A stretch of 64,000 nt of DNA, taken from a virus. The stretch covers positions 1-64,000 of the IMG/VR virus record IMGVR_UViG_3300037264_004923; one strand, given 5' to 3'. Under the pieces are notes generated by a model that was not told the DNA's origin, did not search any database, and worked only from the letters and a program-made list of their open reading frames with translations. Position numbers and translations under genes: made by a program. Shown piece after piece: positions 14,062 through 29,330 of this stretch; within the stretch, counting starts at the first letter, position 1, and each line of letters begins with the position of its first letter.

Positions 14062-15069
14062 ATGTCATTACAAGAAAGACGGATCAGTGCCTTCATCCCT
14101 AGCGTCGGAAAGAGACTCAACGGAATTCTGTGTGGGATCTACAAGAGGACCTTAACCAAAACAAAGGTCGCGCCTCAACAGCAACTGATGGTCGTCGATC
14201 AGGGATTCCCGATTCTTAAGAGTTGTTTAGAAATCGGTATTATACATTCGACGCTCTACGTCGACATGGCCTACGGCTCCAATAATGAAATCAGAATCTT
14301 GGAGGCATCGAGACCCGAGACTTGGGAGCATGTCCCGCAGAACGTCGGTGTATATGCCAGCCGAGACTTTGAGTACGACGGGGTTTACTTTCCTAAGTGG
14401 ACGGCTGGGCGTGTATCCGTTTTTACATCTCCCAACATGGTTCGGGTGCTGTGGGAGCATTCCATTCTCGGCGACCGCTGGATCGGGCTTGACCACGAGA
14501 AGTTTTCCAACCTCGCCTACTGGGAAGTGCCATCGGAATACTTGGAGTTCGGTACCATAGACCTACGGCTCGGTAAAGTTACCCATGCTTGGGGACCAAA
14601 CAAAGTACCCCCAGCTTCTTTCAAGAAGAAGTTCCAAGTCGGGGATATGGTCACATACGTTTCACCAAGATCTCACAGAATAGTCGGAAACGATGGTCAT
14701 AGTCACACCATGGGTTACGGAACGATCCTCAAGGTTATAGTCGCTAATCGCGGCGCGACTGGTGTCACCCTTATCGGCAACTGCCAGAGCGAAATAATTG
14801 GTGCTAACGCCCAATTAGATTCCAACCTTCTCGCCCCGTTCTTATTTCCTTGGTTCCCTGAAGGGGAGAAGGTAAGGGTTACTAAGGAGGTCATGTTTCA
14901 AAAGAGATCCCTACAGGATCAGATCGGGATCGTTCTTTCCTCAACAGACCAGGACGGGGATGTGGGGATTCAGTTCCAAGAAGACATTGGAGCTGGATCT
15001 CTCGATGGTTTGGGCCCGGATGGTAGATGCTTGTTTGTTCCCTCGAAGGCTTTAGAGATTTCAGGGTAG
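14062..15069 (+). CDS. Hypothetical protein, possibly with SH3-like beta-barrel repeats
   Basis: 335 aa; FQVGDMV and FPEGEKVRV segments. Confidence 0.6.
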   Translation: MSLQERRISAFIPSVGKRLNGILCGIYKRTLTKTKVAPQQQLMVVDQGFPILKSCLEIGIIHSTLYVDMAYGSNNEIRILEASRPETWEHVPQNVGVYASRDFEYDGVYFPKWTAGRVSVFTSPNMVRVLWEHSILGDRWIGLDHEKFSNLAYWEVPSEYLEFGTIDLRLGKVTHAWGPNKVPPASFKKKFQVGDMVTYVSPRSHRIVGNDGHSHTMGYGTILKVIVANRGATGVTLIGNCQSEIIGANAQLDSNLLAPFLFPWFPEGEKVRVTKEVMFQKRSLQDQIGIVLSSTDQDGDVGIQFQEDIGAGSLDGLGPDGRCLFVPSKALEISG

Positions 15070-15106: not shown

Positions 15107-15907
15107 TTGCAACCGTTGGTTCCTAAGATCAGGGTTGGCGAAGTTCTCCGTGGCACACGCAACTTACGCCACTGGCTTCGTACCGCGTCTATTCTGTATA
15201 ACATGGAACTATATAGCGGGCAGGGAGTCAATGCTTCCGCTCTCGTGAAAGAGCTGTACACGCCGCAGAAAGATGATACCTTCGTGGTGGCTGCCAACAC
15301 GCCATTCTGTTTCTGTGTGTGGTCCGCTAGGAAAAACATCACTCTGGTTTTCATCAATCCGCACGGCAAATACTTACCGAATGGCCAGCCCTACATGAGT
15401 CCCGACCTGTTCGCCACGTGGTTTGTACGCACGGGTGGGTATTTTCTGGATCTGAATCAATGGCCTAATTACGCCTACTACTTATGGGTGATGGTTCAGA
15501 TGAACGCTCTTACCCTTCCTAACGAAGCGCATGCCATAAGACTGAGCAGTACCCATGCTTATCCTTTCCAATTCCATAACGACGTGAACAACGTTCAGGT
15601 TCGCGACAACGTAGCCAAATACGTTCAACAATCCGCCACTCGGGGACGTCTCCGCTATGCGAACTTGAAGACTTGGCACACAAAACTATACGGGGAGTCT
15701 TTCGTCGGGTACGGTCCTCTGATAAAGCAGATTTTGAGTATGCAAGTCGACATTAGGTCGTATCTGTCCAATCCAAGAAGCATCATGAAGACGAAGCACG
15801 GATCGCGCAATGACCTCCTCCAAACGAAGATACTTGAAGTGCTGCAGTGCTATAGCGAAAATCCTGAAGTTGGTATCGAATTCATCATCAAGAATCTTCT
15901 GTACTGA
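15107..15907 (+). CDS. Hypothetical protein
   Basis: 266 aa ORF directly upstream of the RNA polymerase. Confidence 0.65.
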   Translation: MQPLVPKIRVGEVLRGTRNLRHWLRTASILYNMELYSGQGVNASALVKELYTPQKDDTFVVAANTPFCFCVWSARKNITLVFINPHGKYLPNGQPYMSPDLFATWFVRTGGYFLDLNQWPNYAYYLWVMVQMNALTLPNEAHAIRLSSTHAYPFQFHNDVNNVQVRDNVAKYVQQSATRGRLRYANLKTWHTKLYGESFVGYGPLIKQILSMQVDIRSYLSNPRSIMKTKHGSRNDLLQTKILEVLQCYSENPEVGIEFIIKNLLY

Positions 15908-15943
15908 TATTTTTACCTAACTCCCTGATAAAGGTAAAACAAG

Positions 15944-18900
15944 TTGCTGATTCCTAACTTCCCTTCGTTCCTTCAGGAAACTGCTAAGGAACACCTCCGT
16001 CGATTCAACAGCCGTATGAAGGCAGGCGGTCGCGCCCTAGACATGGCCGTCCAAGTTCGTCAGGACGAGGTGAACACCTTCCTGACTTTTCGCAGTGCCC
16101 GCCAAGGTTCTCTGAACGGTGAAACCGGAACGCTTGTCGTTCCTCGCCCTCGGAAGAACGAGTTTGGCAACTGGGTCATCGGCGATCGGAACGATCGTGC
16201 GCTGTGCCCCCTCATGATCGTGCTGAACGGACAGCCGCAACACGTGACTTACGAGGGGATGATCGGCACTCTCCTCTCTTCCAACGTCGAAGAGCTCTTC
16301 CCCGATCAGGGCAAGCGCAACTATTTCGACAAGATCCTGTGGGCCTTTTCCAAGGGGCGGGGTCGTCTCGCAGTTGGTATGTGTCAGCGGTTTCTGAACC
16401 AGACTATCTTCAACTCGCTTCCTCTCAGCGGCACCTCGATGCAGGATTGGGCGATGAATCATCGTCTGATGATCTTCGATCCGATCTTCGAGACTCTTCG
16501 CCCCGAAGAAAAGCTGGCGTATCAGAAGCGGAAGAATGAGCTGCTCTTCCCGTGGTCGTCCATCGGTCTGTCTGACGGTGCGGCGGCGGTGAAGAACTAC
16601 ATCCTCCAAGCGGACCTTCGCAAGTATACGGCATTCGGTAACCGGCATCACAATCCGATCCGCAATCTGTACTCCACGCTTGGCATGAAGGGAGAGGAGA
16701 AGCCTTTGGTCATCTCCAAGTCCATGTCGGGCTTGGAGGAGCAGGGGATCAGCCGCGGTGGTTGGAACTGGATGACCGTGTTCCTGGACCTGCCGTTGAA
16801 CTTCGAGGATCAGATCCTCGTTTCGCGCCGGCACGCTGGGAAGAAGGTGACGGACCATCGGAGCTTCATCGTGTTCGGCGAGGAATCGGCGGCTCTTGGG
16901 GATAACATCCTCAAGGATCGCGTCCTCGGCATGAACGAAGACGAGACACCTGTCGTGTTCGACATCGATTGTGACCACGCCAAGGTGATCGAGATCAAGG
17001 ACGGGGTTGTTCCGTTCGATGGCAATGATCAGCCGGTTCGTATCGTGACGCTCGAAGTGGTCTATTCCTTCAAGGAAGGATTCAAGATCACCAACCAGCA
17101 CGGCAATAAGGGCATCGTCATCTTGGAAGACCTAGGAACGGTTCACGATCCGAAGCGGGGTGAAATCCCGATCGACGTGATCGTTTCGGCTCGCTCGGTC
17201 CAGAAGCGCAAGAATTTCGGACAGATCTTGGAGGCCCTGGCCACTATGATCCACGGTACCGAAAAGCGCTTCATCGTTCCTGACGACATTGAGGTGTCCC
17301 AAGAACAGGTGGAGAAGTCTCTCGTGAGTGCGGGCTATTCCAAGGAGGGATCCTCGAAGGTATCCACTTCGTGGGGTGAGTTCGACACGCTCTGCGGCTG
17401 GATCCACTGGGGTGTCACCAAAACCCCCGAAGAACAGTTGTGGGAGAAGCGAGACACTTGGACGGAGAACCAGCGTGGACTTCGTACTCGAGGCAACAAG
17501 CTCTCGACCGTGGAACTCAAGGCGCTGACGACTCTGTTCGGCGCTGGTTCCAAGGTGGTGGGAGAGATCCTCTCCTACCAACAGGGACTCGGTGAAGTCC
17601 AGGAGTTGCTCCAGATCCTCGATAGCCTGCGCGGGAACGTTCGGGAAGAACTTCCTGTCGTGAACCCCGAGTCTTTCGTATACATCCCCACCGGTATGGG
17701 CACTTTCCATTCCATGGACGGTCTGGCTGGTACGCTGGCCGACGAGCATATGTATCCGCAGGGTTGCTACCTCCAACTACCCATAACTCTCCGCATGGAG
17801 GTTCCTCTGGAACGTTGGAAGAACCCCATCCGAGAAGGCATCGTGGGTGAAGAGAATGCGTACGGAAGCGAGGACTGCAAGGTGTACGAGGTCGATCGTC
17901 TCTTGATTCCGAGCTTCTCCCTTCGACAGCCGTGGCGACATCCGACTGGCAAGTTTGGCCTGTCCGAAGTGACCACGGTTCTGAACCAAGTCTTGGAGAA
18001 CATCGATCTGCTTCAGCGCGGGGAGATCAAGCCCGCCCAGCTTTCTGCCCTCATCTACAAGTATCTACACAACATTGGTCAGGGTCTCTCTACCAAGAGT
18101 GGAAAGATCAGCTCCTATCTCATGTCTGTCCGGTATCCGCACTCCTCGAAGGCGACCGCTGTTCTGGGTCGCAATCTGGAGGCGAACTGGGTGGAGATCC
18201 ACAAGGACATGGCAAAGGATCTGAGCGTCCAGACAGGAGACTACGTCTTGGTAGAGCGCTTTCCATGCCTCGGTTTCATGTCCGTACGCATCCAACGTGT
18301 GCGGGTGACCGATGATGTGGAGTGCAAGTACGTGATCCGGGTCAGCGGTAACTCGCTGGTCTCCATGAACTTGGACTTCGACGGAGACGTGATCTATGTG
18401 ATGAGCTTCCATACGGAAGCAGCCAAGGAAGAACTGCAGGCCAATTTCCACAATCCTCACCCGAGGATCAAGGAGGTTCTGGATACGATGAACGGGAAGA
18501 AGGTTCCCATCACGCGTTCCATGAACCTTCAGGAGATGGACCTGAAGAGCTTCGCACCGCTGACCCCCGAGGAACACGCAGATCTGAACGAGATCTCTCT
18601 TGCAGTCAAGCTGTATACGGGTCCTGTCATCGCTCTCTGCTACAACCTGATGCGTATTGCCGAAGGAAGCTTCAGCTACCAAGATCGTGAAGCCCACATC
18701 AATATCGAGGTCTTCCTCGATAAGGTCGGGAACTCGGTCTTCTCGCAGAAGCACGGTATTCGAAGCCTCAGGGAAGAGTGTACGGAGGCGGTGTGTCTTG
18801 CGGATCTGCAGGCAATGGTGAAGCTGGGATTCCCCGAGAAGGAATCCGCGAAGTTGTGCCAAGCCGTTCGAACTGCGGCTGCAAAGCTGGGAGTTCGGAA

Positions 18901-19129
18901 CGATGCAGAGCTAAAGGCTCACTACGAAAGGCACATCAAGGAAGGTCGCTCGAGCATCATCAATGCTATCGTTCGCCGTTTCCACAAGGCGTATTTTGCC
19001 ACCCGATCCAACCTGCATTCCTTGGATCTTCTGGAGCATCTCGATTCCAAGCCTAATGACTTGGCGTCGTTCTTGATCCAAGAGAGCCTTCGCAAGGTAC
19101 GGACTGCGCCCGCGGTTGCTGTAGCGTAA
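15944..19129 (+). CDS. Single-polypeptide two-barrel RNA polymerase (beta and beta' motifs fused)
   Basis: beta-type motifs NFEDQILVS, KITNQHGNKG, PIDVIVS..SV.KRKNFGQILE, RGNKLSTVE, followed by beta'-type VLVERFPCL and catalytic NLDFDGD. Confidence 0.9.
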   Translation: MLIPNFPSFLQETAKEHLRRFNSRMKAGGRALDMAVQVRQDEVNTFLTFRSARQGSLNGETGTLVVPRPRKNEFGNWVIGDRNDRALCPLMIVLNGQPQHVTYEGMIGTLLSSNVEELFPDQGKRNYFDKILWAFSKGRGRLAVGMCQRFLNQTIFNSLPLSGTSMQDWAMNHRLMIFDPIFETLRPEEKLAYQKRKNELLFPWSSIGLSDGAAAVKNYILQADLRKYTAFGNRHHNPIRNLYSTLGMKGEEKPLVISKSMSGLEEQGISRGGWNWMTVFLDLPLNFEDQILVSRRHAGKKVTDHRSFIVFGEESAALGDNILKDRVLGMNEDETPVVFDIDCDHAKVIEIKDGVVPFDGNDQPVRIVTLEVVYSFKEGFKITNQHGNKGIVILEDLGTVHDPKRGEIPIDVIVSARSVQKRKNFGQILEALATMIHGTEKRFIVPDDIEVSQEQVEKSLVSAGYSKEGSSKVSTSWGEFDTLCGWIHWGVTKTPEEQLWEKRDTWTENQRGLRTRGNKLSTVELKALTTLFGAGSKVVGEILSYQQGLGEVQELLQILDSLRGNVREELPVVNPESFVYIPTGMGTFHSMDGLAGTLADEHMYPQGCYLQLPITLRMEVPLERWKNPIREGIVGEENAYGSEDCKVYEVDRLLIPSFSLRQPWRHPTGKFGLSEVTTVLNQVLENIDLLQRGEIKPAQLSALIYKYLHNIGQGLSTKSGKISSYLMSVRYPHSSKATAVLGRNLEANWVEIHKDMAKDLSVQTGDYVLVERFPCLGFMSVRIQRVRVTDDVECKYVIRVSGNSLVSMNLDFDGDVIYVMSFHTEAAKEELQANFHNPHPRIKEVLDTMNGKKVPITRSMNLQEMDLKSFAPLTPEEHADLNEISLAVKLYTGPVIALCYNLMRIAEGSFSYQDREAHINIEVFLDKVGNSVFSQKHGIRSLREECTEAVCLADLQAMVKLGFPEKESAKLCQAVRTAAAKLGVRNDAELKAHYERHIKEGRSSIINAIVRRFHKAYFATRSNLHSLDLLEHLDSKPNDLASFLIQESLRKVRTAPAVAVA

Positions 19130-19134
19130 CAACA

Positions 19135-19177
19135 GGGGGGAGGGAGGGGGTACTCCTCTCCTTCCTCCTTTTTCTTT
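19135..19177 (+). terminator. Rho-independent terminator after the RNA polymerase
   Basis: G-rich/C-rich stem followed by TTTTTCTTT. Confidence 0.7.
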
Positions 19178-19185
19178 GGGAGATT

Positions 19186-19695
19186 TTGAGTATGCACCTT
19201 TACCCCGTCCCCAAGAACACATACGTGAATAGTCTGTTCATACAGCACGGGTGTGATAAGGAAACCCGAGACCTTTTGTGTAAGTTGCCCCTCAAAGAGC
19301 TGGATATTCTGGTGAAGCACACAGATATCTTGGGGCGGGTGAAGAACATTGCCAAGATGTCATATTTTCATCTCGAGCACCTCGTGACGTCCCAGTATGG
19401 CCTCAAGGTTGACGCCTGGGGGAGCGGTGATTATTACCTCGGCGTGACCGGCATCGACGACAGAGCCCCAAGCTGGTGGCACAGTGATCACGTTGGCTGG
19501 ATATTCCATTTAGGAGACACCCCCCAGTTCACGGCATGGGCTAGGGACTTTCTGATGCAGGAGGTTCGTATCAACATTTGGATGAGATACCTTGAATACA
19601 AGAGGACCGAATTGAAGTCTAAGCCGTTGGAGGTCGATCCAGCCGATATCCCGGCTGCTACGGCTGACCTCGGGCACTTCGGTTCATTCCTGTAG
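19186..19695 (+). CDS. Hypothetical protein
   Basis: 169 aa ORF on the coding strand. Confidence 0.6.
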   Translation: MSMHLYPVPKNTYVNSLFIQHGCDKETRDLLCKLPLKELDILVKHTDILGRVKNIAKMSYFHLEHLVTSQYGLKVDAWGSGDYYLGVTGIDDRAPSWWHSDHVGWIFHLGDTPQFTAWARDFLMQEVRINIWMRYLEYKRTELKSKPLEVDPADIPAATADLGHFGSFL

Positions 19696-19702
19696 GAAGA
19701 TC

Positions 19703-20050
19703 ATGTCGTACGCGAACAACTATCAGTGCTGTGGAAATCTGACCTCCGAGCCCATTTTGAATGAGCACGGAGGACAGCCCTACACGAAGTTCGTGGTGGC
19801 ACTGAACAAGCCAGGGCAGAAGAAACCCACCTATATAGACTGCATAGTTTGGGGAGATCTGTCCTTACGGGTAGTTGATCACTGTACCAGAGGTACCGAG
19901 GTCTTTCTATCGGGGGAAATCGAGACCAGCAACTACATGGACGCCAGAGGTTCACACCACAAGTCCACGTCGCTACGGGTCGAGAAATTCTCCATCACAA
20001 AGAGGGGAAGGGGAGAGGCAGAGGTGCAGCTACCCAAACCCCCAGTATAG
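19703..20050 (+). CDS. ssb: Single-stranded DNA-binding protein
   Basis: GNLTSEP, F.VALN, YIDCIVWG, RGTEVFLSGEIET OB-fold motifs; no acidic C-terminal tail. Confidence 0.9.
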   Translation: MSYANNYQCCGNLTSEPILNEHGGQPYTKFVVALNKPGQKKPTYIDCIVWGDLSLRVVDHCTRGTEVFLSGEIETSNYMDARGSHHKSTSLRVEKFSITKRGRGEAEVQLPKPPV

Positions 20051-20096
20051 CAAAGAAGAGGAAATCTTCTCTATCATGTATCATAAGGAGGCGTAT

Positions 20097-20624
20097 ATGC
20101 CGTTCACAGTTAAGGAGTATCCTGGTCAGCGTTTTGAAACCATCGATGAGTATACGGAGGCAAAGAGGCGCAGAATTTCTGTAGAGAAGAGCCTCGAAGC
20201 CCGAGCTATGGAACCTGAGCCGGAGGAGCTAACAAGGGTTACAGCCACTGTGTTACCCGCACCCCCGCGCGTCGTAGAAACGAAGCTGGTAGAACTCGAA
20301 AGAGAAGTGGCAAGACTCAGCACCACAATCAGTCGGATGCTAGAGAGTCCAAAAGAAGAAAAGCGTGAGTTGGAAACTGGCAAGGTCCTACACGGAGAAA
20401 GCCAAGGTAGAAAGTTCACGGTGGAGGTACTGGAAAACGGGTACCTTTGCAGCGACGGAAAGATTTACGAAAGCCTGTCTGGAGCAGCTCTCGGGGTATC
20501 CGGGAACCGTAGGTCGGGTTGGAAGTTTTGGAAAGATGCAACAGGGACTCCTATCGGAGTTGTGATAGGGAGATTTTCCGACCATGCCGATGGTGTCGGT
20601 AACCGAGAAACCACGCACATGTAA
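20097..20624 (+). CDS. DUF2924-like DNA-binding protein with N-terminal coiled coil
   Basis: C-terminal GYLCSDGKIYESLSGAALGVSGNRRSGWKFW; AAGGAGG RBS. Confidence 0.7.
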   Translation: MPFTVKEYPGQRFETIDEYTEAKRRRISVEKSLEARAMEPEPEELTRVTATVLPAPPRVVETKLVELEREVARLSTTISRMLESPKEEKRELETGKVLHGESQGRKFTVEVLENGYLCSDGKIYESLSGAALGVSGNRRSGWKFWKDATGTPIGVVIGRFSDHADGVGNRETTHM

Positions 20625-21234
20625 GCTCTGCCAGTCCCCCAAGGTGGGCGCGACCACTGATTTCACGATGGGTGGTGGGCAGACATTTATTTGCCACGAA
20701 TGTGGCGGCTATATGATTCTAGACAACAAGCACGTCTCCAACAACTATCGCAAGTGTGAGCACTGCGAGACCGTGGGAGAGATCACCACCGATGGCGGTG
20801 AAGAATGGTGTGGTTCCTGCGGTCTCGATCCCAGTGAAGAAATTGATACCTATCGCCTCAGCGTCCTCTGGAAGGAAGGATCGGAAATCCGCCGGATCAT
20901 GAATGAGGGTAAGTCCGGACTGGGTGCCGGAAAATCGGTCGGGGATTTTCTGAGAAACTTCTGCGGTCCTCACTGTAACTTTGCAGACAAGTGCGATCAG
21001 ACAGTGAAGAACCTCGTTGTTTGCCACAAGGAGTATAAGCTCAACGAGAGCGAGAGTGAGATGTCAAAGAAAAGTAGAGAGAGACGCAAAGAAGAACGCG
21101 CGCGAGCGCGGCCGAATACCTATAAAGAAAAGCCAAAACAGACGATGGTACAGTGTGCCAAGTCTGGTTGGTTCGAGAGACATATCGTAAATGGAACTTA
21201 TCATACGAAACAAAGTGGAGATAAGGAATCCTGA
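20584..21234 (+). CDS. Multi-CxxC zinc-finger protein
   Basis: CKLC, CHEC, CEHC, CGSC and a further Cys cluster. Confidence 0.65.
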   Translation: MPMVSVTEKPRTCKLCQSPKVGATTDFTMGGGQTFICHECGGYMILDNKHVSNNYRKCEHCETVGEITTDGGEEWCGSCGLDPSEEIDTYRLSVLWKEGSEIRRIMNEGKSGLGAGKSVGDFLRNFCGPHCNFADKCDQTVKNLVVCHKEYKLNESESEMSKKSRERRKEERARARPNTYKEKPKQTMVQCAKSGWFERHIVNGTYHTKQSGDKES

Positions 21235-22624
21235 TCAGGAGCTCCGAGAGTACCTGAAAGAGATTCTGACCCTCCTAAATCCGGAATGGCTGGACGCCCA
21301 GACTTTCGGCCGCTGGACCGGAAACATTCCCAAGTTCCTGTATCAATATCAGGAAGTTGGAGACTCTATCATTGTGCCTCGAGGCCGGCTGATACACATC
21401 CGAGAAGACCTAGGACGTGAATGGGTTATTCGAGATGAACGTGTAGCCCCAGAAGCTGAGAAGCTCTGGCCCGAAGGCAATATAATTTTACGACCCGGTG
21501 ATCAAGAACCCGCGGTCCAAGAACTACTTTCATTCGACAATGGCTACCTCTCTGCCCCAGCGGGTTGTGGCAAAACGGTCCTAGGATTGGAAGCCATTCG
21601 GAGATTGGGTCTAAAAGCCTTGTGGCTAACCCACCGGTTAGAGCTAAAGGACCAGGTTCTCGAGGTAGCAGTACGACTGCTGGAAATCCCTGAACAAGAC
21701 ATAGGCATCCTTCACGGAAAAACCTGGAAGATCGGGGAACAGCTGACTATCGGGATGGTCCCTACCCTACGCAAAAGAGATCTGACAGACATTAGTAAGG
21801 AGTTCGGGGTAGTGGTAGTGGACGAAGCCCATCACGTACCTAGCACCACCTTCCTTCACGTTCTGGATAAGTTCTGGGCTAAACACCTATACGGACTTAC
21901 AGCGACCGCCTATCGAAGAGACAAGCTCGACGAGGTAATGTTCAACGCTATTGGTCCAATTGTAGCGAAGATCGAGCATGTTGAACTCTTTGAGGATGAG
22001 AATCTCATCAAGCCTACCATTAGAAGGCGCATGACAGGTTGGAGCCCTCCTAATTCCCATCTCTTAGAGTATAGTGATTTCATGGAGAAGATGGTTTCTG
22101 ATCCCCGCCGAAATAATTTGATAGTACAGGACGTTGTTCGTGAGTGTGTACCAGGAAACACCTGTGTCGTGCTCGTAAAGAGAACCAAGCACGCGGAAGT
22201 CCTGACGAAGCTTCTACAAGATAGCGGAACCCGTTGCGAGTACGTGGTCGGCTCCCTTGATGTGGAATCCCAAGACGACGACGGGGTGATCCAACGCAAG
22301 AAGAAAAGCCTTCCCAAGGAGTTGCGGAACCAGATAGTATCCGACTTTAAGGAGGGACGCATCCAAGTTCTTGTGGCCACCTATGATCTTTTGGCCGAAG
22401 GGTTCGATTATCGACCACTGAATAGGCTCTTCATGGCGACCCCTATCAAGTGGAAAGGAACAGTGGTTCAATCCATCGGCAGGATTCAGCGACCGGCGGA
22501 GGGCAAGCACGAAGCCATCGTCTACGACTACGTAGATGAGTCCATCGATATGTTTGCCCGTCAAGCAGAATCCAGACTTTTCAGGGTATATGGGCCTATG
22601 GGAATGAAGGTAGAAGATACCTAA
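21191..22624 (+). CDS. Superfamily 2 DExH helicase (UvsW/XPB-like)
   Basis: APAGCGKT, DEAHH, LTAT, EGFD, QSIGRIQR. Confidence 0.95.
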   Translation: MELIIRNKVEIRNPDQELREYLKEILTLLNPEWLDAQTFGRWTGNIPKFLYQYQEVGDSIIVPRGRLIHIREDLGREWVIRDERVAPEAEKLWPEGNIILRPGDQEPAVQELLSFDNGYLSAPAGCGKTVLGLEAIRRLGLKALWLTHRLELKDQVLEVAVRLLEIPEQDIGILHGKTWKIGEQLTIGMVPTLRKRDLTDISKEFGVVVVDEAHHVPSTTFLHVLDKFWAKHLYGLTATAYRRDKLDEVMFNAIGPIVAKIEHVELFEDENLIKPTIRRRMTGWSPPNSHLLEYSDFMEKMVSDPRRNNLIVQDVVRECVPGNTCVVLVKRTKHAEVLTKLLQDSGTRCEYVVGSLDVESQDDDGVIQRKKKSLPKELRNQIVSDFKEGRIQVLVATYDLLAEGFDYRPLNRLFMATPIKWKGTVVQSIGRIQRPAEGKHEAIVYDYVDESIDMFARQAESRLFRVYGPMGMKVEDT

Positions 22625-22631
22625 AAAGGAA

Positions 22632-23738
22632 ATGTACATGGAGTTTGACATTGTGCCGTCCTTGATCGTAAAGCCCGGGGAGATCAGCCTTCCCCAAGAA
22701 TTACGACAGGATTTGGGCGTATTGATTGGTCAGTTTCTCCAGATCAAAAGCGGAGAAGTCGAGTTCATTCTGCAGATTATAGCTCCTCTCGGACCAGAGC
22801 AAGGGTCCGCGTGCATTTCGAGCTCCGAGTACCCTCAGCTCAAAAGTAAGGATGTCGAATACAAGATACTGGAGGTAACTCTGGGATGCGACCCAGAATT
22901 CTTTATCTTGTGGAACCACAAGAGAGTAGTAGCAGCCACCTACTTACCCTTCGTGGGACAGATCGGCTGTGATGGAGAGCTCGGAGAGCTTCGCCCGACC
23001 TACGGAAAGCACGAGAGCCAAGTGGTGGCAACCCTAGCGAGCCTCATCTCTCAGATTCCTAGTAAGATGAAGCGAGAGGCGTGGGCTCACGGATATCCAG
23101 AAAGAGGCGATCAATTCTCCTACGAGGCACATTCGTATCTGGGAGGAGTTGCCGCAGGGTTCCATGTTCATATGGGTATTCCGCCCGAAATTCTGAATAC
23201 CCGAAGAGATTTCAACCGGGCAGCAATGAATCACATTGTGCAATGCTTGGACTGGTACGTGTCCGTTCCACTGATTCCTCTGGAGGCAAATCATAGTCGC
23301 CGACTCGGGAAATCGAACTACGGAAGACCTGGGGATTACAGACCCTCCAACGTGACTTTGGAGTACAGAACTCCAGGTGCGTTCTATCTTCGGACGCCGA
23401 TTCTGGCAGCAGGACTGCTGGGAATGTCTCTTCTAGTGGTGGAGAATCTGGTAAGCCGGTTGAAGATAGCCAGCAAGAACTTCGTGAATCTACATAAGCT
23501 CACGGCTGCAGACTTCCATGAGATTATGCCCAAGCCGGAGCCCGACGAGATCAAGGGTGTCCTTCTAAATGAGAATACCAACCTGTCAAGATTCGCGATG
23601 GAGGGCATAAGGAAGCAGCTCGAGGCCTTACCTTCTTTCGGTAAGCACCGAGCGGCAGTAGAGGATTTCTTCAGCGTAGTGGATAAACAAGAGCAGCCAA
23701 GACCAAACCTACTGATGAACTGGAAGGAAGAGAAGTGA
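22632..23738 (+). CDS. phiEco32-like COOH-NH2 ligase type 2
   Basis: LGCDPEF, GCDG..GELRP, GFHVHMG, RR...YG.PGDYR, LEYRT. Confidence 0.85.
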   Translation: MYMEFDIVPSLIVKPGEISLPQELRQDLGVLIGQFLQIKSGEVEFILQIIAPLGPEQGSACISSSEYPQLKSKDVEYKILEVTLGCDPEFFILWNHKRVVAATYLPFVGQIGCDGELGELRPTYGKHESQVVATLASLISQIPSKMKREAWAHGYPERGDQFSYEAHSYLGGVAAGFHVHMGIPPEILNTRRDFNRAAMNHIVQCLDWYVSVPLIPLEANHSRRLGKSNYGRPGDYRPSNVTLEYRTPGAFYLRTPILAAGLLGMSLLVVENLVSRLKIASKNFVNLHKLTAADFHEIMPKPEPDEIKGVLLNENTNLSRFAMEGIRKQLEALPSFGKHRAAVEDFFSVVDKQEQPRPNLLMNWKEEK

Positions 23739-25441
23739 CGATCAAAGCAAAGCGTCGCGGATTCGTCAAGTTTCAGCAGAAGTCACAGCGGCCGCCTCTG
23801 TCCCGCGAGAAGTTCGAGTACTGGATGGATATGCTGCCGAAGATCCTGAAGGTCGGTACCGAGTTCGAGATCAATCTCCCGGATACCAGCCAAATACTGC
23901 AGGTGAAGGAAGAGACCCCCTGTCTACACGCCACTGTACCGGCAACCGCAGAGTGTGCCAAGGATTGCTCTAACCTCGAGGAATGCCTTGTCGAGCGTCA
24001 CCCCGCCTTCTGTCTCACGAAGAGCAGCGGGAAGTTTCTGGACAAGGATTTCCAGTGCCCAGCCAAGAGTGAGTCGGATACGGAATCTTGCCGCGCCTGC
24101 CCGGCGTGGATGCTGAACTGCATGGGCATGCGTTGCGCGATGTATTCTCCGGCGTGCTCTGTGTGCCCCTCCTTCCTAAGGAAGGGAGAAGTCATCGAGG
24201 CCGGCAACATTCGCAGAGATGCTGAAACCATTCGGCGTGAAGTAAAGGACATCCTTCAGCCGACCGGGTTCGTAGGAGAGACAGGCAGCCACGGGGCCCT
24301 CGAAGTCAAGAAGGACAACTCGCTGATCAACAACGGAGGTATAGAAGTCCCCACCGTTGGTCGACGGGTGCATTGGAACAGCTTCTACAAGATGTGCCAA
24401 GACATCCTTACGCCGATCGTCGAGAGAGGTGGCTTCGTGAATGAGCGGTGTGGTCAGCACTATCACGTTCTCGCTGGGTACTTCGACGAGCAGTCGGGTA
24501 TACGCGGAAGATACGTGTCCGAGATGGAAGAGCCTCTGCCCGAGATCATCCTCGCGAATCTGCATCAACTGCATCGTCGGTATCAGCTGGCAATGTATTG
24601 GATCATGAGCGCCGGCACTGTCCCCGAACACCTGACGCGCTGGGCCAAGTTCCGACAGTCAATCTACAAGTTCAGTGCCCTGAGAAATCCGATGTCTCGA
24701 GTGCAGGCAGAACTAGCTGAGCACATTGTGTCCATGAACAACGGTCAGAAAGGCAAGTACGCCTCCGTGGCGTATCACTTCTGCAAGTTCAATCCGGAAG
24801 GAAACGTCACTACCTTCCATATCGAGAACCGGATCGCTGATGGAACCCTGTCGGCTGCAGTGGCCAGTGCTTGGGGGATGCTTTGCTACGCCCTCGTCCT
24901 GAAGGCCGTTCGTCTATCCCAGTATGGTACGATGGAAGCCGGAGACGTAGAGTACAACGAGAAGGTAAAGCTCATTCAGCCTCATCTCATAGATGGTGGG
25001 CAACGGGACTGGGGTTCGGACAGGAACGCCAACACCGCGGGGCTCGCCCCATTCATTCCGTGGCTGCGGGAGAACACAGTGGAGCTCATCAACTTCCTAA
25101 AGCCTGAGCTCCATGGTCTTGGTCCGGCGTACGAAATTCTGATGTCTCTCGCGAACCGTCCGTGTTCAGCAAGGTTGATCAACGGAGACAGCTGGCAGAA
25201 GATCGAGGCCGACCTCATGAAAGAAGCGGGATTCAAGAGAAACCGTGGCTCGGAAGATGACATTCGAGAAGTTGTGGATCTGGCCGGCATTGTGGATTGC
25301 GAAAGCGTTGCTGCTTGGATCGAGGAAGTTTCGGCACATCTGGGACAGTCTCCCGCCGTAGTAACTGATGTTGTTTCCCAAATGACCCGATCGGGTCGGT
25401 ATCGATGGAGCCAACCCATCGGTGCTCTGATCACTACATAG
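23735..25441 (+). CDS. Putative amidoligase (glutamine synthetase-like fold) with Cys-rich insert
   Basis: VGTEFEI, KKDNSL..GGIEV, VNERCGQHYHV, IENRIADGT; 12-Cys insert after the first motif. Confidence 0.75.
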   Translation: MTIKAKRRGFVKFQQKSQRPPLSREKFEYWMDMLPKILKVGTEFEINLPDTSQILQVKEETPCLHATVPATAECAKDCSNLEECLVERHPAFCLTKSSGKFLDKDFQCPAKSESDTESCRACPAWMLNCMGMRCAMYSPACSVCPSFLRKGEVIEAGNIRRDAETIRREVKDILQPTGFVGETGSHGALEVKKDNSLINNGGIEVPTVGRRVHWNSFYKMCQDILTPIVERGGFVNERCGQHYHVLAGYFDEQSGIRGRYVSEMEEPLPEIILANLHQLHRRYQLAMYWIMSAGTVPEHLTRWAKFRQSIYKFSALRNPMSRVQAELAEHIVSMNNGQKGKYASVAYHFCKFNPEGNVTTFHIENRIADGTLSAAVASAWGMLCYALVLKAVRLSQYGTMEAGDVEYNEKVKLIQPHLIDGGQRDWGSDRNANTAGLAPFIPWLRENTVELINFLKPELHGLGPAYEILMSLANRPCSARLINGDSWQKIEADLMKEAGFKRNRGSEDDIREVVDLAGIVDCESVAAWIEEVSAHLGQSPAVVTDVVSQMTRSGRYRWSQPIGALITT

Positions 25442-25451
25442 GAGAAAAGAG

Positions 25452-26300
25452 ATGTGCGGTATTGCCACCATCTCGATCGGTCGCCGGAACCGCGATCGAA
25501 TTCCTTACGACAAGCTTCGTGCCCTCGTGCGAGAGCTCATGGTCGAGCTTCAACCCCGAGGCAACGACGCGTCAGGAATCGCCATCATAAACGCTCTCGG
25601 AACGACGCCAAGTAGCGTCTACAAGAAGGCGTTGAGACCGGATCGGTTCGTGGTTCGGCCTGCGTTCGAAGACTCCCTGAAGAAGATCGGACCAGAGACC
25701 AACTTCGTTCTTTTGCACGCCAGAGCGGCCACCGTCAGCGGCACAGAGAACAACTACAACAACCACCCCATTCTGATCCCGAACTTCGTAGGGATCCACA
25801 ACGGGACCCTGTACAACGAGGACGGGTTGTTCAAGGAGTTCGAGGAATACTTTCCTCGTGAAGGACAAGTGGATTCGGAAATCATCTTCCGGTTGTTCTC
25901 CCACTTCGTGAGCAAGGGTGTGGGTTCCCAGAAGGCCCTGAAAGAAACCGCGGAGTTGCTCAACGGAGCTTTCACAGGGGCGGTGGTGGATTGGAGAAGG
26001 CCACACGAAATGGTCATGTTCAAGCATGACCGGGCGTTGTGCCTAGTCCGCATTCCATACTACGACGTGGTCATCGCAGTCTCGGAATCGAAGTTCTATC
26101 AGCGCGCAGCGACACGACTGCGCATGAAGGTCAAGGCCTCCCATCAGTACGTGTTGGACGGCGTTGGCCTGATTATGAACTTGGAATCCGAGAAGCCGCT
26201 AGTTGACAACCTAGTTGATTTCGACATTCCAGTGAAGAGGTTCACCAGCATGGGGAGTCAGTATGGCAGCTACTATAGCCCACGGTCCTACGTCGGATAA
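25452..26300 (+). CDS. Class II (Ntn) glutamine amidotransferase
   Basis: N-terminal MCGI, RGNDASG, HARAAT, NNHP, HNGT, VDSE. Confidence 0.92.
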   Translation: MCGIATISIGRRNRDRIPYDKLRALVRELMVELQPRGNDASGIAIINALGTTPSSVYKKALRPDRFVVRPAFEDSLKKIGPETNFVLLHARAATVSGTENNYNNHPILIPNFVGIHNGTLYNEDGLFKEFEEYFPREGQVDSEIIFRLFSHFVSKGVGSQKALKETAELLNGAFTGAVVDWRRPHEMVMFKHDRALCLVRIPYYDVVIAVSESKFYQRAATRLRMKVKASHQYVLDGVGLIMNLESEKPLVDNLVDFDIPVKRFTSMGSQYGSYYSPRSYVG

Positions 26301-26312
26301 GGAACAGCAAGC

Positions 26313-28043
26313 ATGTGTGGTATTGTAGGCATCATTCAGTACGAATCTCGGGTCGATCGAGTCGTTCGCGCGAAGGCCCTGAGGATTCTGTTCTCGGACA
26401 TCATGCTGCTCACTGAGCCTCGAGGAGATGACGCAACCGGCATCTACCAAGTTCACGCCGACGGCGATTGGATGATGGCCAAGAAGGGCCAGAAAGTCTC
26501 CCAGTTTCTGTACGAAGTTGAGGGTAAAGATGACCCGATCACGTACAGCGACTTTATGAGGACGTGGGACCAGCATGAAATGGAAATGACCGCCCTAGTA
26601 GGTCATTGCCGCAAGGCCACTGTGGGAAGCCGTGGACAGAACAACGACGACAATCATCCCTTCGCTGTGCAACTAGACGAGCGGAACGCCATCCTAGGTG
26701 TGCACAACGGTACGCTGACCAACCACGAGACCATCTTCAAGAAGCTGACCTGTCAGCTTCCTCGACAAGGCGGTGTCGACAGCGAGTCCATCTTCCATCT
26801 GATGTACGAGGAGACGGAGAAGGGTACGAAGCGCATGACCGGGGACATTCTCCGCAGAATGGGAGAAAGAATTGACGGAGCGTACGCCGTGGTCGCGGTC
26901 AATACACGCTTCCCGAATCAGGTATCCGTGTTTCGAGAGGGTCGACCGACAGAAATGATCATGGTTGCCCCCCTCAACATTGTCATTCTGGCTTCGATGA
27001 AGAAGTTCGTCGAAGAGGCTCTGGCGAAGTACGAGTTCTTCCGGCGAATAATGGATCCCAGTCTGCCGGCTCTCACAACAAACGATCGGATGTTGCCGGA
27101 GCGCGACTATCGAATCTTCGACACCACGCTGCCCTTCCCCACTGGCAAATTGGAATGGGCCGATTTCGATGCCATCTCCGAGAAGGGAGAAATGAGGAGA
27201 CTTACCAATTCTATTCTGGAGGATTGGAAGCCCGAGACGAGCTCACCTTCCAGCTTATATTCAGGCGGCCATCACGGCGGATACAGCTCTCATCAAGGCT
27301 TCCACAGGGCTACGGGGACTCCGCCAGCTCCTGCAGCCGCGACTGTACCCGCCGAGACAACCACCCCGGTATCGCCGGCGGCTCTATCTGGGGTGCGTGC
27401 ATTGCCGGCTTGTATCAAGAAGCCTGAGGAAATCACCAAGGTTGATGCAGAGATCGTCTTTGGAGAGCCCACCGAGGAGGAAGCGACCAAGGCCTTCCAT
27501 CAAGTAGTATCCCTAGGACTCTGCGTGAGCTACGATTCCACGGGAGAGGTGGCGAAGGCACTGGATAAAACTGAGTCCGAGATCAACAAGACGCCGATCT
27601 CGGAGATTGCAAACGAACTGTCGAAACTGCACTTCAACTTTGGCTATGCCATGGGAGCCATCGATTCCAAGGCGTCCAACGAAGAGGTACGAAGACTCGG
27701 CCGCCAGCAGCTTCAGAAGATGGAGAGGTTGGCCGAAAAGCAGAAAAAGGCAGAGAAGCACATCTGGGAGTTGAAAAGTCTCATTCAAATCGGAATCGCG
27801 CTAGCCGAATGTGGTTTTCCGATCAGCGAGCGGAATGCCAAGACGGTGCTTCAGTCCTTCAAAGCTCTTCCGGCTGGACGTGCTGGGGATGTGGAGAAGA
27901 TGCTTCACAGTGTATTGGAAGATAAGGCTGCACAGAAGACAGTGCGAGACTTGGTTTCCAAGCTGAAGTCTGCCGCGCAGCGACAAAAGCTGAAGAAGAA
28001 AGAGCGGGCCTCCAAGGCCGATCAGTCCTCCACGTCCGAGTAG
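26313..28043 (+). CDS. Class II glutamine amidotransferase with long C-terminal extension
   Basis: MCGI, RGDDATG, GHCRKAT, NHPF, HNGT, VDSE; low-complexity linker and coiled-coil tail. Confidence 0.9.
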   Translation: MCGIVGIIQYESRVDRVVRAKALRILFSDIMLLTEPRGDDATGIYQVHADGDWMMAKKGQKVSQFLYEVEGKDDPITYSDFMRTWDQHEMEMTALVGHCRKATVGSRGQNNDDNHPFAVQLDERNAILGVHNGTLTNHETIFKKLTCQLPRQGGVDSESIFHLMYEETEKGTKRMTGDILRRMGERIDGAYAVVAVNTRFPNQVSVFREGRPTEMIMVAPLNIVILASMKKFVEEALAKYEFFRRIMDPSLPALTTNDRMLPERDYRIFDTTLPFPTGKLEWADFDAISEKGEMRRLTNSILEDWKPETSSPSSLYSGGHHGGYSSHQGFHRATGTPPAPAAATVPAETTTPVSPAALSGVRALPACIKKPEEITKVDAEIVFGEPTEEEATKAFHQVVSLGLCVSYDSTGEVAKALDKTESEINKTPISEIANELSKLHFNFGYAMGAIDSKASNEEVRRLGRQQLQKMERLAEKQKKAEKHIWELKSLIQIGIALAECGFPISERNAKTVLQSFKALPAGRAGDVEKMLHSVLEDKAAQKTVRDLVSKLKSAAQRQKLKKKERASKADQSSTSE

Positions 28044-28064
28044 TGCTTCACAATCGAGGAAAAC

Positions 28065-29330
28065 ATGGGAAGAAAGATAGAGCTCCGACTCTTAATCTCG
28101 CCCTCGATGTCAGAGAAGAAGGAAGAGGGGATTATTCGGTTCCCTCTTCGAGCTCGCTCTCACTTTGGCTTTTCCGACAATTGCGTATCTATTGGCAAAG
28201 GAGGCGCAGAGCTCTACCTGTCTGTCAAACAGGCCTATAAGCATGACGTTCAGCGCATTCAGAAAATGCTCGCAACCAAAGAATTACCGCTTGAGGATGT
28301 TATCAGAGTAGGCTTCGTCACCCGGTCGGTGCATAGAAAGCTGAACCAGAAAGAAGGAAGTGCTTGGATCACCAATGGGATGGGAAACATAACCATTGGG
28401 TGTGACCCCGAATTCGGATTGATCGATCCGACCACAAAACTCTTGGTGCGAGGCGACAAGGTTCTTCCAGGTTCCATCCAGCACAAGTTCGGAGCCGACG
28501 GTCCTGGCGTGGAGATCCGCCCAGATCCTCGCAGAGACCACATCGGCGTAGTGGAGAACATCCGCAAATCGCTGGAGAATCCTCCAGAGGGTGCCGATAA
28601 ATACAAGTGGATCGGAGGCGCCACTTATCACGATAAGAACCGATGCTATTGGTTTGGTGGTCACGTACACTTGGGTCGCCCGGACAGCATCGATGCAGAG
28701 ATAGCCGGAGCATGCTACGAGAAGATTGCGGTTGTGCTCGATCATCTGGTGGCTTTCCCGATGGTTAGCTTCGATACCCCAGAACCGAATAAGCGAAGGA
28801 ACGGATGCCTGCATCAGTACGGGAAAGCTGGAGATATTCGAGCCAACTATCCCGAAGGAAATAGATTCGAGTACCGAGTACTCAGCGGTCTTTGGCTGGT
28901 GCACCCTGCCCTCGCACGTATCGTTCTAGGAGTTTCCAAGTGCGTGGCGGAGACCGCGTACGAAAGAATCATACACAACAACAAGGATCTGGAATACATT
29001 CAGGCCCCGGGCTCCAAGAAGGGCCTCCTCCGAAGCTTCGGTCTGAAGGGCTTCAAGGAGAAGGCCTCCATTATCAACAACGCGAATCCAGAACGCCTCA
29101 CAGAGGAGTCCATCTCTGAGTGGGAGCATCAACTGATGAGTTTGGATCGTGCCGATGAGTATAAGGAAGAGCTAACTGCTCTTGTGGAAATCGTCAAGGC
29201 TTCGCCAGAGAATGTCGTTCCTCAGTTGGATCTCGACATTCGAAACGCGTGGCAGAACAACAAACCGCTTCTTCCAGAAGCTTCCGCTTCCCTACGCAAA
29301 GCGTTGGACGCGGTGGAGAACAAGAAATGA
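28065..29330 (+). CDS. phiEco32-like COOH-NH2 ligase type 2
   Basis: IGCDPEF, GADG..VEIRP, GGHVHLG, RR..YGKAGDIR, FEYRVLS.LWL. Confidence 0.88.
   Translation: MGRKIELRLLISPSMSEKKEEGIIRFPLRARSHFGFSDNCVSIGKGGAELYLSVKQAYKHDVQRIQKMLATKELPLEDVIRVGFVTRSVHRKLNQKEGSAWITNGMGNITIGCDPEFGLIDPTTKLLVRGDKVLPGSIQHKFGADGPGVEIRPDPRRDHIGVVENIRKSLENPPEGADKYKWIGGATYHDKNRCYWFGGHVHLGRPDSIDAEIAGACYEKIAVVLDHLVAFPMVSFDTPEPNKRRNGCLHQYGKAGDIRANYPEGNRFEYRVLSGLWLVHPALARIVLGVSKCVAETAYERIIHNNKDLEYIQAPGSKKGLLRSFGLKGFKEKASIINNANPERLTEESISEWEHQLMSLDRADEYKEELTALVEIVKASPENVVPQLDLDIRNAWQNNKPLLPEASASLRKALDAVENKK

Follow-up and report, generated by a model that had tools for sequence, protein, structure and literature searches.

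A predicted single-chain beta–beta' RNA polymerase of the multisubunit lineage in an uncultured jumbo phage

How far can a cellular-type transcription enzyme be reduced, and could such a remnant still find its promoters with a sigma factor? Cellular transcription relies throughout on a five-subunit core of about 400 kDa, and its known reductions fall into three groups: enzymes divided over many chains (phiKZ, AR9), enzymes diverged past sequence recognition (YonO, crAss, P23-45) and one enzyme from a yeast plasmid. The question is raised here by a single gene (P0001; positions 15944–19129, + strand) in the window, i.e., the whole 64,000-nt stretch of viral DNA that was analyzed, which stems from an uncultured giant (jumbo) phage. 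Judged from its sequence and its predicted fold, the 1061-aa product is very probably an active RNA polymerase. The more specific reading, that it is an active DNA-dependent enzyme of the multisubunit lineage which carries reduced forms of beta and beta', in that order, in one chain, is also probable, with somewhat less certainty.

Gene, motifs and sequence relationships

The TTG start codon of the ORF was checked, and a Shine-Dalgarno-like AAAGG (15930–15934, + strand) lies 9 nt 5' of it. A terminator-like hairpin of 17 pairs, followed by a T-run (19134–19180, + strand), begins 5 nt past the stop codon. The gene belongs to a replication and nucleotide-metabolism block with an SSB-like gene, a helicase and RuvB. 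Two ORFs (14062–15069 and 15107–15907) are located directly 5' of the polymerase gene, the gaps being 37 and 36 nt, a small conserved ORF (19186–19695) follows directly 3', and a gene for a DUF2924/RAMA-like protein is found at 19875–20624.

The first-pass annotation had read beta and then beta' motifs in this one ORF and had proposed a strongly reduced fused polymerase with cellular-type motifs. Every motif it quoted was recovered in place: NFED (aa 286–289), KITNQHGNKG (aa 381–390, nt 17084–17113), DVIVS..NFGQILE (aa 411–430) and RGNKLSTVE (aa 516–524), followed by ERFPCL (aa 771–776) and NLDFDGD (aa 809–815, nt 18368–18388). The Pfam profiles Rpb2_6 (aa 371–473, 25.0 bits, cut-off 23.4) and Rpb1_2 (aa 752–832, 28.5 bits, cut-off 25.3) both passed, in the order beta barrel, then beta' barrel. 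Two-barrel polymerases share eight universal residues: the three aspartates of DxDxD, the arginine and proline ahead of it, two lysines and an acidic residue in barrel B (PMC2919709). Their counterparts D811, D813, D815, R772, P774, K381, K389 and D289 were invariant in an alignment of 26 sequences (relatives 40–87% identical to the query), as were the motif residues, and E288 was listed beside D289 among the kept catalytic residues. The catalytic residues also matched the Pfam profiles, and the two lysines lined up with E. coli beta 1065/1073 (hhalign). Since both Pfam cut-offs were passed, 431 homologues were found and the motif residues are invariant, the motif set is beyond chance.

The sequence likeness to true beta and beta' is limited to the barrels, which counts against the preferred reading. 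The best score against the RpoB/RpoC equivalogs of NCBIfam was 21.2 bits vs. a cut-off of 896, so that the protein is not an RpoB/RpoC orthologue; the barrel motifs scored best against bacterial beta. When the family was aligned with the single E. coli beta sequence by hhalign, the barrel-B stretch was the sole confident part (E. coli 1049–1117, 93.9%). Against E. coli beta', aa 653–744 aligned with 242–360 at low probability for this single-sequence template, with the motifs in order. In this low-probability alignment, N686 pairs with beta' R275, which likewise counts against the preferred reading.

Predicted structure and comparison with known polymerases

The AlphaFold (AF2) model is a compact single chain (pLDDT 87.5, pTM 0.82), and it was compared with known structures by VIA-align. 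Residues 1–546 (15944–17581, + strand) form the beta-like half, supported by VIA-align, hhalign and the invariant residues, and resemble beta/Rpb2 with Z 17.6–18.5. Among the individual matches were Xanthomonas beta (6j9e_C; residues 1–544, Z 18.1, 494 aligned) and plastid beta (8qma_A; residues 1–494, Z 18.5); overall, 494–500 residues from the N-terminus align to beta/Rpb2 and 385–407 to Rpb1/beta'. This half comprises an N-terminal beta1/protrusion-like part (aa 1–~220), of which residues 1–164 matched the Thermus beta1 fragment 3mlq_A (Z 7.2), a region-D-like HHNPIRNLY (aa 235–243), and barrel B with NFED and the catalytic lysines. Barrel B carries a short all-beta insertion in the modeled secondary structure (aa 296–373; 16829–17062, + strand). 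Residues 302–373 matched the flap of E. coli beta weakly (3tbi_B, Z 6.9), and the insertion looks like a reduced, SBHM-like flap. The flap tip helix is the binding place of sigma region 4, and no such helix was present at its expected place in the model, a further point against the preferred reading.

Residues 560–1048 resemble beta'/Rpb1 (Z 11–13.1) and reach the C-terminal parts of these subunits (7ob9_A, Z 13.1, 385 aligned; 6edt_D, Z 11.0, 407 aligned). The putative beta' N-terminal elements (17900–18160, + strand) come from the low-probability hhalign stretch with its kept motif order and consist of a lid-like LRQPW, a helical hairpin (aa 675–715) and a switch-2-like SVRYPHSSKATA. The two hairpin helices of the model, 675–691 and 697–715, occupy the position of the beta' clamp helices, the dock of sigma region 2, and R661, W664, G669, G672 and N681 are invariant in the 26 sequences. 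Barrel A, the beta' double-psi beta-barrel (DPBB; 18140–18448, + strand, from Pfam Rpb1_2 and the model), contains R772-x-P774 within ERFPCL and the Mg-binding aspartates of NLDFDGD; residues 733–822 matched designed and natural DPBB domains with Z 9.8–10.4 and an rmsd of 1.7–1.9. It is followed in the model by a long helix (aa 875–909) and a helix-loop-helix (aa 915–951; together 18566–18796, + strand). The former appears to stand at the bridge-helix position and has bridge-helix length, and the latter, with an invariant K936-H937 at a helix end, would be trigger-loop-like. The pLDDT dips at aa 931–940, and N930, V932, F933, K936 and H937 are invariant among the 26 sequences.

The first-pass annotation would have been overturned by a structure without two DPBBs; both barrels are present in the model. 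With both DPBBs and all eight residues, the predicted protein belongs to the two-barrel superfamily. Elements of the cellular-type lineage beyond the barrels are likewise present as judged from sequence and model, with a weak flap match and a low-probability line-up of lid, clamp helices and switch 2. Because both halves lie in one ORF and no alpha-like match was found, the enzyme is a derivative rather than a standard member of the multisubunit lineage.

Along its chain, the phage enzyme follows the bacterial core of beta plus beta' element by element, from NFED, the HGNKG lysines and GQxxE to the LRP lid, the clamp helices and switch 2, and then to RxP, NADFDGD and the bridge helix. However, E. 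coli beta and beta' comprise 1342 + 1407 aa vs. 1061 aa here, and the phage enzyme does without alpha2/omega and without the zinc-binding clamp element, with its flap cut to the short beta insert. Full-length beta::beta' fusions exist in Helicobacter. The non-virion RNA polymerases (nvRNAPs) of phiKZ and AR9 likewise come from jumbo phages, belong to the multisubunit lineage and lack alpha and omega. They gave the tightest fit in the beta-barrel region (residues 222–516 against AR9 7s00_C, Z 17.7, rmsd 3.5, and phiKZ 7ogp_C, Z 14.8). In these phages, however, beta and beta' are each divided over two polypeptides, a fifth factor outside the sigma family is used (gp68/gp226), and a sigma gene is absent (PMC7598289, PMC7824862), whereas the present phage has one 1061-aa chain and a true sigma-70-family gene.

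YonO, P23-45 gp64/gp96, crAss phi14:2 gp66 and QDE-1 resemble the phage enzyme in that one polypeptide holds both barrels, and several of them are phage-encoded. However, they form the other major two-barrel clade (PMC10770324), lack Pfam-level likeness to beta or beta', and no sigma use has been reported for them (PMC10770324, PMC5467207, 10.1101/2020.03.07.982082). Our model matched QDE-1 with Z 10.9, P23-45 gp96 with 10.1, P74 gp62 with 10.0 and crAss gp66 with 7.3, vs. about 18 for beta and 13 for beta'; as modeled, the enzyme is structurally nearer to the multisubunit polymerases. The closest published architecture is Orf6 (K2ORF6p) of the yeast plasmid pGKL2, a single chain of ~980 aa in the order Rpb2/beta, then Rpb1/beta', which has lost about half of each parent subunit and retains the two-barrel active site (PMC2919709). 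The two enzymes are alike in architecture and size, a likeness drawn from the published description only (PMC2919709). Orf6 differs in belonging to a eukaryotic plasmid, in its presumed derivation from eukaryotic-type subunits and in working without sigma. The first-pass annotation had missed this ~980-aa Rpb2::Rpb1 precedent (PMC2919709).

Relatives in phages and bacteria, and the sigma factor

Among 8000 candidates scored, 431 homologues were found at E≤1e-3; these are metagenome-derived proteins of about 1050 aa, mostly within 1000–1150 aa, and the full-length ones among those listed were 41–94% identical to the polymerase. Conservation is strong over the full length in hundreds of relatives, and the family stands isolated in a library of 1.84 billion proteins. 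A tblastn search against 50,697 phage records returned no match for the polymerase, nor for a conserved 568-aa neighbor protein; there is thus no cultured relative to rely on. In PHROGs, the only hits were weak and partial, with E 8e-6 and 3e-3 to families annotated 'RNA polymerase beta subunit', and no description of the family was found in the literature searched. Together with the greater structural nearness to multisubunit enzymes than to those of the YonO, crAss and P23-45 type, this places the polymerase outside the characterized phage RNAP families, one of which might have claimed it according to the first-pass annotation. The 'moraphage' lineage was considered as a match for this phage group and rejected; it is a separate group that lacks a polymerase.

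Synteny around the gene is kept in 12 IMG/VR loci on contigs of up to 298 kb, and in a 101-kb record the polymerase is the only RNAP gene. Further large subunits encoded elsewhere, another concern of the first-pass annotation, did not appear: RNA_pol_L (alpha-like) gave nothing above noise in G000 or the three complete relatives, and a second Rpb2_6 match, i.e., another beta-like barrel, was not found in the complete relatives. The only extra signal was a beta'-like module within giant frames of 4,500–7,700 aa in all five near-complete relatives (G001–G005). This module may be a virion polymerase; a PDB profile search with it returned nothing meaningful.

A sister family of ~1040 aa is encoded chromosomally in many bacterial phyla (222 bacterial genome stretches; Latescibacterota, Poribacteria, Chloroflexota, Planctomycetota, Armatimonadota and others). 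It aligned with the phage family across the beta/beta' junction (hhalign probability 99.6%, E 7e-24, A1 residues 228–834). Both are beta::beta' fusions of similar length with the same catalytic motifs. However, the sister family lacks the flap-like insert of aa 296–373 (a gap in hhalign) and is much nearer to bacterial beta/beta', with Rpb2_6 scores of up to 137 bits and a detected Rpb2_3 fork domain. Of its 80 loci, 78 contain a sigma-like ORF; 67 copies share the strand of the polymerase ORF, from which a median of 0 nt separates them. This sigma is of the ECF class, its gene abuts the polymerase gene upstream, and the cassette conserves only sigma and polymerase; one cluster member is a Sigma70_r2::polymerase fusion. 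For the sister family, too, no paper was found in the literature searched. ORF 15107, which has the position of the sigma gene in the sister family, was examined as a divergent sigma and rejected (hhalign probability 0.4%).

The window itself encodes a sigma-70-family factor of 276 aa with regions 2 and 4 (33711–34541, + strand; Pfam r2 and r4), which scored 67.6 bits with TIGR02937 of NCBIfam vs. a cut-off of 42.9. Its role may be to initiate transcription with the mini polymerase, or else with the host polymerase. The first-pass annotation had named this factor, or the ORFs at 14062 and 15107, as possible partners; of these, the sigma has gained support of an indirect kind. In 11 of the 13 phage records an orthologue is encoded on the same strand, 13.5–18 kb downstream of the polymerase gene. 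Several observations count against the preferred reading: the phage sigma gene is ~15 kb from the polymerase gene and not adjacent, its class is RpoH/RpoS-like vs. ECF in the sister cassette, one subclade (G004, 86% complete, and G010) yielded no such gene, and sigmas for the host core are common in jumbo phages without their own polymerase (PMC7598289, PMC13282480). The 26 intergenic gaps of the window yielded no common promoter motif; mismatch-tolerant k-mers gave only Shine-Dalgarno sequences and tRNA T-arms there. Sigma-70-type sites were not enriched (8 found vs. 12.4 expected). The chances that the polymerase uses sigma appear evenly balanced.

Proposed mode of action and its meaning

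The best reading of sequence and model is a non-virion enzyme for which sigma use is plausible. The beta::beta' fusion would replace the alpha2/omega assembly platform, so that the chain could fold alone into a working core. The polymerase would be made after infection, as its place in the replication and nucleotide-metabolism block and its own terminator suggest, and would then transcribe middle and late phage genes without the host core enzyme. Promoters would most likely be recognized via the sigma factor at 33711–34541, docked on the clamp-helix hairpin, a proposal that builds on the two-gene ECF-sigma and mini-polymerase cassette of the bacterial sister family. The early genes may fall to a second polymerase, the beta'-like module of the giant 4,500–7,700-aa protein.

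Alternatively, the polymerase could be active and initiate through a non-sigma phage factor, comparable to gp68 of phiKZ or gp226 of AR9, with the phage sigma serving the host core; we consider this unlikely. Candidates for such a factor are the products of 14062–15069, 15107–15907, 19186–19695 and the DUF2924/RAMA-like gene (19875–20624). The first two lie directly upstream, part of the 14062 protein turns up again in an ORF immediately 3' of the polymerase gene at two distant loci (L009 and L013), and most loci with the polymerase gene also have the DUF2924/RAMA-like one. The subclade without detectable sigma points the same way, as do reviews in which phage sigmas redirect the host core (PMC7598289). 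However, the upstream pair is kept only in the two closest relatives, and ORF 15107 shows no kinship with sigma. ORFs 14062, 15107 and 19186 had no match in Pfam, PHROGs or NCBIfam, and the leads from the ESM Atlas for 15107 and 14062 all stayed below threshold (scores ≤0.83), with a faint SH3/KOW-like signal for 14062. Moreover, the sister family genetically pairs such an enzyme with a sigma.

That the chain is only the catalytic center of a larger assembly, inactive without host alpha/omega or phage subunits for the C-terminal functions of beta', seems improbable. Only ~250 aa follow DxDxD vs. ~950 in E. coli beta', no zinc-binding cysteine cluster can be seen where the beta' part begins, the small conserved ORF 19186–19695 lies directly downstream, and yeast plasmid Orf6 works with the small Orf7 subunit (PMC2919709). 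Yet the single-chain model is compact and confident and reaches the C-terminal parts of Rpb1/beta' with a helix of bridge-helix length and a hairpin, no alpha-like or second beta-like gene was found in the complete relatives, and the sister cassette holds sigma and polymerase only. That this two-barrel polymerase has another job, as a primase in replication, a PolD-like DNA polymerase or an RNA-dependent RNA polymerase, is hardly to be expected. The gene does lie among replication genes, the superfamily takes in RdRPs and PolD (PMC2919709, PMC10770324), and QDE-1 and plant RDR2 were among the structural matches (Z 10.4–10.9). However, DNA-dependent multisubunit enzymes matched clearly better (Z 13–18.5), a sigma factor accompanies the sister family, and the lid/clamp-helix/switch-2-like stretch, which Ruprich-Robert and Thuriaux link to double-stranded DNA transcription (PMC2919709), is kept.

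With the single-chain, possibly sigma-dependent core as the preferred reading, a wider scenario can tentatively be drawn. An uncultured jumbo-phage lineage would run a two-polymerase program in which the beta'-like module of the giant protein, probably injected, starts infection and the 120-kDa single-chain core with its sigma-70 factor follows; this core would share a fused ancestor with the bacterial ECF sigma and mini polymerase cassette. If true, this would be the smallest known sigma-dependent cellular-type polymerase and reveal a second, unrecognized bacterial transcription system. The phage polymerase may be the smallest cell-type transcription enzyme still able to use sigma. A 120-kDa chain with lid, clamp-helix, switch-2 and bridge-helix elements and a tie to sigma would define the minimal sigma-dependent polymerase, and a covalent link would then be shown able to stand in for the alpha2/omega platform. 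Such a compact, orthogonal and promoter-programmable enzyme would also be of use to synthetic biology. The family marks a large jumbo-phage lineage without a cultured member, and its sister cassette opens the possibility of a second polymerase in many bacteria.

The polymerase gene and its family

The mini polymerase (1061 aa) is encoded by the ORF at 15944-19129 (+), which opens with a TTG start 9 nt behind an AAAGG, and a 17-bp hairpin with a T-run was found in the sequence 5 nt 3' of the stop codon. All motifs that the first-pass annotation had quoted for this ORF were recovered, each at the position assigned to it, and the core reading of a reduced single-chain polymerase combining beta and beta' holds; the finding is real. 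In Pfam, matches above the curated cut-offs were obtained for RNA_pol_Rpb2_6 (aa 371-473) and RNA_pol_Rpb1_2 (aa 752-832), while the NCBIfam RpoB models scored 21 bits against cut-offs of 800-900. With the RpoB score that far under its cut-off and both Pfam barrels present, it can be concluded that the protein is not an RpoB or RpoC orthologue, yet carries their catalytic cores. Sequence searches of the PDB returned bacterial and plastid beta chains only, with weak matches (best E 7e-4) spanning the HGNKG...GQILE stretch. The IMG/VR record whose first 64 kb make up the window has 101,763 bp and is rated 34% complete, which is equivalent to a phage genome of about 300 kb.

When 5.8 billion proteins were searched by word index, 431 of the 8000 candidates scored reached E<=1e-3. 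The 120 best of these 431 are nearly all 1000-1150 aa long, with identities of 41-94%, and their source contigs reach 315 kb. Not one of these 120 bears an informative name, 'hypothetical protein' being the most that is given. Among 1.84 billion cluster representatives, all scanned with HMMER, approximately 30 full-length clusters were found, followed by a wide gap to the next relatives, and tblastn of the mini polymerase against 50,697 phage records gave no match. In a 26-sequence alignment of the phage family, more than 100 columns are invariant, among them E288-D289, K381, K389, R772, P774 and D811/D813/D815. This invariant set includes all eight residues considered universal in two-barrel polymerases (PMC2919709). 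Our literature search found no description of the phage family, nor of the bacterial sister family discussed below.

Predicted structure and nearest known systems

The AlphaFold2 model built from the same 26-sequence alignment (pLDDT 87.5, pTM 0.82) was aligned exhaustively to 48,161 PDB representatives. Residues 1-546 of the model fit beta/Rpb2 subunits starting at their N-termini, with the plastid beta at Z 18.5, Xanthomonas beta at Z 18.1 (494 residues aligned) and the ASFV, Pol I and Pol IV enzymes at Z 17.6-17.7. The tightest fits of the barrel region were found with phage enzymes, namely the AR9 nvRNAP (Z 17.7, rmsd 3.5) and the phiKZ nvRNAP (Z 14.8). Residues 560-1048 fit Rpb1/beta', reaching Z 13.1 with human Pol I (385 aligned) and Z 11.0 with M. 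tuberculosis beta' (407 aligned). The single-chain enzymes of the other clade fit less well, with Z of 10.9 for QDE-1, 10.1 for P23-45 gp96, 10.0 for P74 gp62 and 7.3 for crAss gp66.

Within the beta-like half, aa 1-164 of the model resemble a beta1 domain (Z 7.2) and aa 302-373 form a beta insert that looks like a reduced flap, a weak match (Z 6.9); hhalign paired aa 365-433 with E. coli beta 1049-1117 at a probability of 93.9%. For aa 653-744, the hhalign match to E. coli beta' was of low probability, with the LRP lid motif, two clamp helices and a switch-2 stretch in the same order; at the clamp-helix position, the chain is modelled as a helical hairpin (H675-691 and H697-715). Beyond barrel A, aa 875-909 form a helix of 35 residues, and a helix-loop-helix with an invariant K936-H937 comes after it. 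Judged by secondary structure, the former would be the bridge helix and the latter a trigger-loop-like element. The mini polymerase is a new family in the multisubunit branch of the two-barrel superfamily.

In architecture, the nearest described analogue is the yeast plasmid Orf6, whereas in sequence it is the bacterial, sigma-linked sister family. The nearest predicted viral structures in BFVD are A0A8S5SD80_1, A0A172Q0S6, A0A172Q021_2 and A0A075BUT7_2, all unannotated. A0A8S5SD80_1 (TM 0.49 by query) is named 'minor tail protein' and comes from Siphoviridae sp. ctnpt50, and the others belong to the jumbo Acinetobacter phage ME3 (two proteins) and the Microcystis phage MaMV-DC (one). These matches of predicted structures suggest that cultured phages may hold unrecognised single-chain two-barrel polymerases.

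Gene neighbourhood and a possible second polymerase

Twelve IMG/VR loci have a common gene order around the polymerase gene, in which it is followed by genes for a small SSB-like protein, a DUF2924/RAMA-like protein, a ResIII/Helicase_C helicase, a COOH-NH2 ligase, a 568-aa protein and glutamine amidotransferases. In the window, this family-wide conserved downstream block occupies 19703-30430 (+). It begins with the SSB-like ORF (19703-20050, +), which is overlapped by the DUF2924/RAMA-like ORF (19875-20624, +) from its listed TTG start, a start that is probably too early. The helicase (21191-22624, +), the phiEco32-type COOH-NH2 ligase (22632-23738, +) and the 568-aa protein, which has neither a family match nor a phage match (23735-25441, +), come next, and class II amidotransferases also belong to the block (+). 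Elsewhere, the part of the window from 41 to 64 kb, its minus-strand half, is lower in G+C with opposite GC skew, and the 651-aa protein at 57356-59311 (-) matches PHROG 4871 (E 7e-111), which is a phage 'ATP-dependent protease' family.

Upstream of the polymerase gene, ORFs 14062 and 15107 had been proposed as possible partners. Neither matched any entry in three HMM libraries, and as a pair they are kept upstream in the two closest relatives only. ORF 15107 is not sigma-like and was ruled out as a sigma factor. Approximately 60 residues of the ORF 14062 protein (14062-15069, +) are found again in two distant family members, there in an ORF immediately 3' of the polymerase gene (L009:12864-13820 and L013:11095-11559), so this gene or domain seems to keep beside the polymerase gene but to switch sides. 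ESM Atlas leads for ORF 14062 were faint and SH3/KOW-like only.

With regard to further subunits, neither barrel profile matches anything in the 101-kb record apart from the mini polymerase itself, no alpha-like gene was found in the complete relatives (G001, G002 and G005), and Rpb2_6 gave no second match in the five near-complete related records (G001-G005). Each of the five relatives with a completeness of 86% or more carries a (K/N)LD(F/Y)DGD site in a giant open frame, detected with the beta' barrel profile or the module profile. These frames range from 3,325 aa, cut by a contig end, to 7,674 aa; the giant frames listed by locus for the five relatives span 4,562-7,674 aa, and their beta'-like module holds R-x-P together with (K/N)LD(F/Y)DGD. 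One lies at L110:761-14713 (-), equivalent to G001:250760-264712; the corresponding positions in the other relatives are approximately 169749-170714 (-) in G002, L026 (G004), L027 (G003) and L111/L112 (G005). The giant frame is absent from the 101-kb record, whose end lies well short of the syntenic position. The module occurs in 30 IMG/VR loci, and its alignment with the mini polymerase starts at DFDGD, takes in the putative bridge helix and reaches a KHxG motif (hhalign, 90.3%, E 1.5e-6). Its model is of medium quality (pLDDT 63.6) and fits Rpb1/beta' chains best, though loosely (Z 10-11.6, rmsd 7-9 Å), with unrelated helical bundles scoring about equally, and no barrel-B part has been located so far in the giant frames. 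The module, which may be a virion polymerase, resembles those found within crAss gp66 and within the tape measure protein of P23-45 (PMC10770324).

The bacterial sister family and its sigma factors

Closest to the phage family among the remaining cluster representatives are proteins of about 1040 aa that match Rpb2_3, Rpb2_6 and Rpb1_2. Their profile aligns with the phage family over residues 228-834 (hhalign, probability 99.6%, E 7e-24), and as this alignment crosses the beta/beta' junction uninterrupted, the fusion is common to both families and not convergent. Unlike the phage family, the sister family is without the flap-like insert. When one genome per prokaryotic species was scanned, 222 stretches were found to encode a relative, many of them on complete chromosomes of Latescibacterota, Poribacteria, Chloroflexota, Planctomycetota, Armatimonadota and Gemmatimonadota. 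Bacteria outside these six phyla carry it as well.

A sigma-like ORF is present in 78 of the 80 retained sister loci (L030-L109), where an ECF-type sigma accompanies the mini polymerase of about 1040 aa. In 67 cases, both genes share a strand and the median distance from the sigma-like ORF to the polymerase start is 0 nt. An example is the Latescibacterota cassette with the sigma at L031:5399-5998 and the polymerase at L031:6001-9126. Nothing beyond sigma and polymerase is conserved around these loci. On a JGI contig of 5,021 bp, both are joined in one sister-family member (P0237), a 1214-aa Sigma70_r2::polymerase protein with the sigma part N-terminal, which could be a true fusion or the result of a lost stop codon between abutting genes.

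In the window itself, 33711-34541 (+) encodes a member of the sigma-70 family that contains regions 2 and 4 (Pfam and NCBIfam). Using Pfam and a family-specific profile, orthologues were found in 11 of the 13 polymerase-bearing records, in every case on the same strand and 13.5-18 kb downstream of the polymerase gene; the two records in which none was found (G004 and G010) belong to one subclade. On genomic grounds, the bacterial cassettes argue strongly that mini polymerases of the beta::beta' architecture work with a dedicated sigma, and homology to the sister family suggests that the phage enzyme may do so as well.
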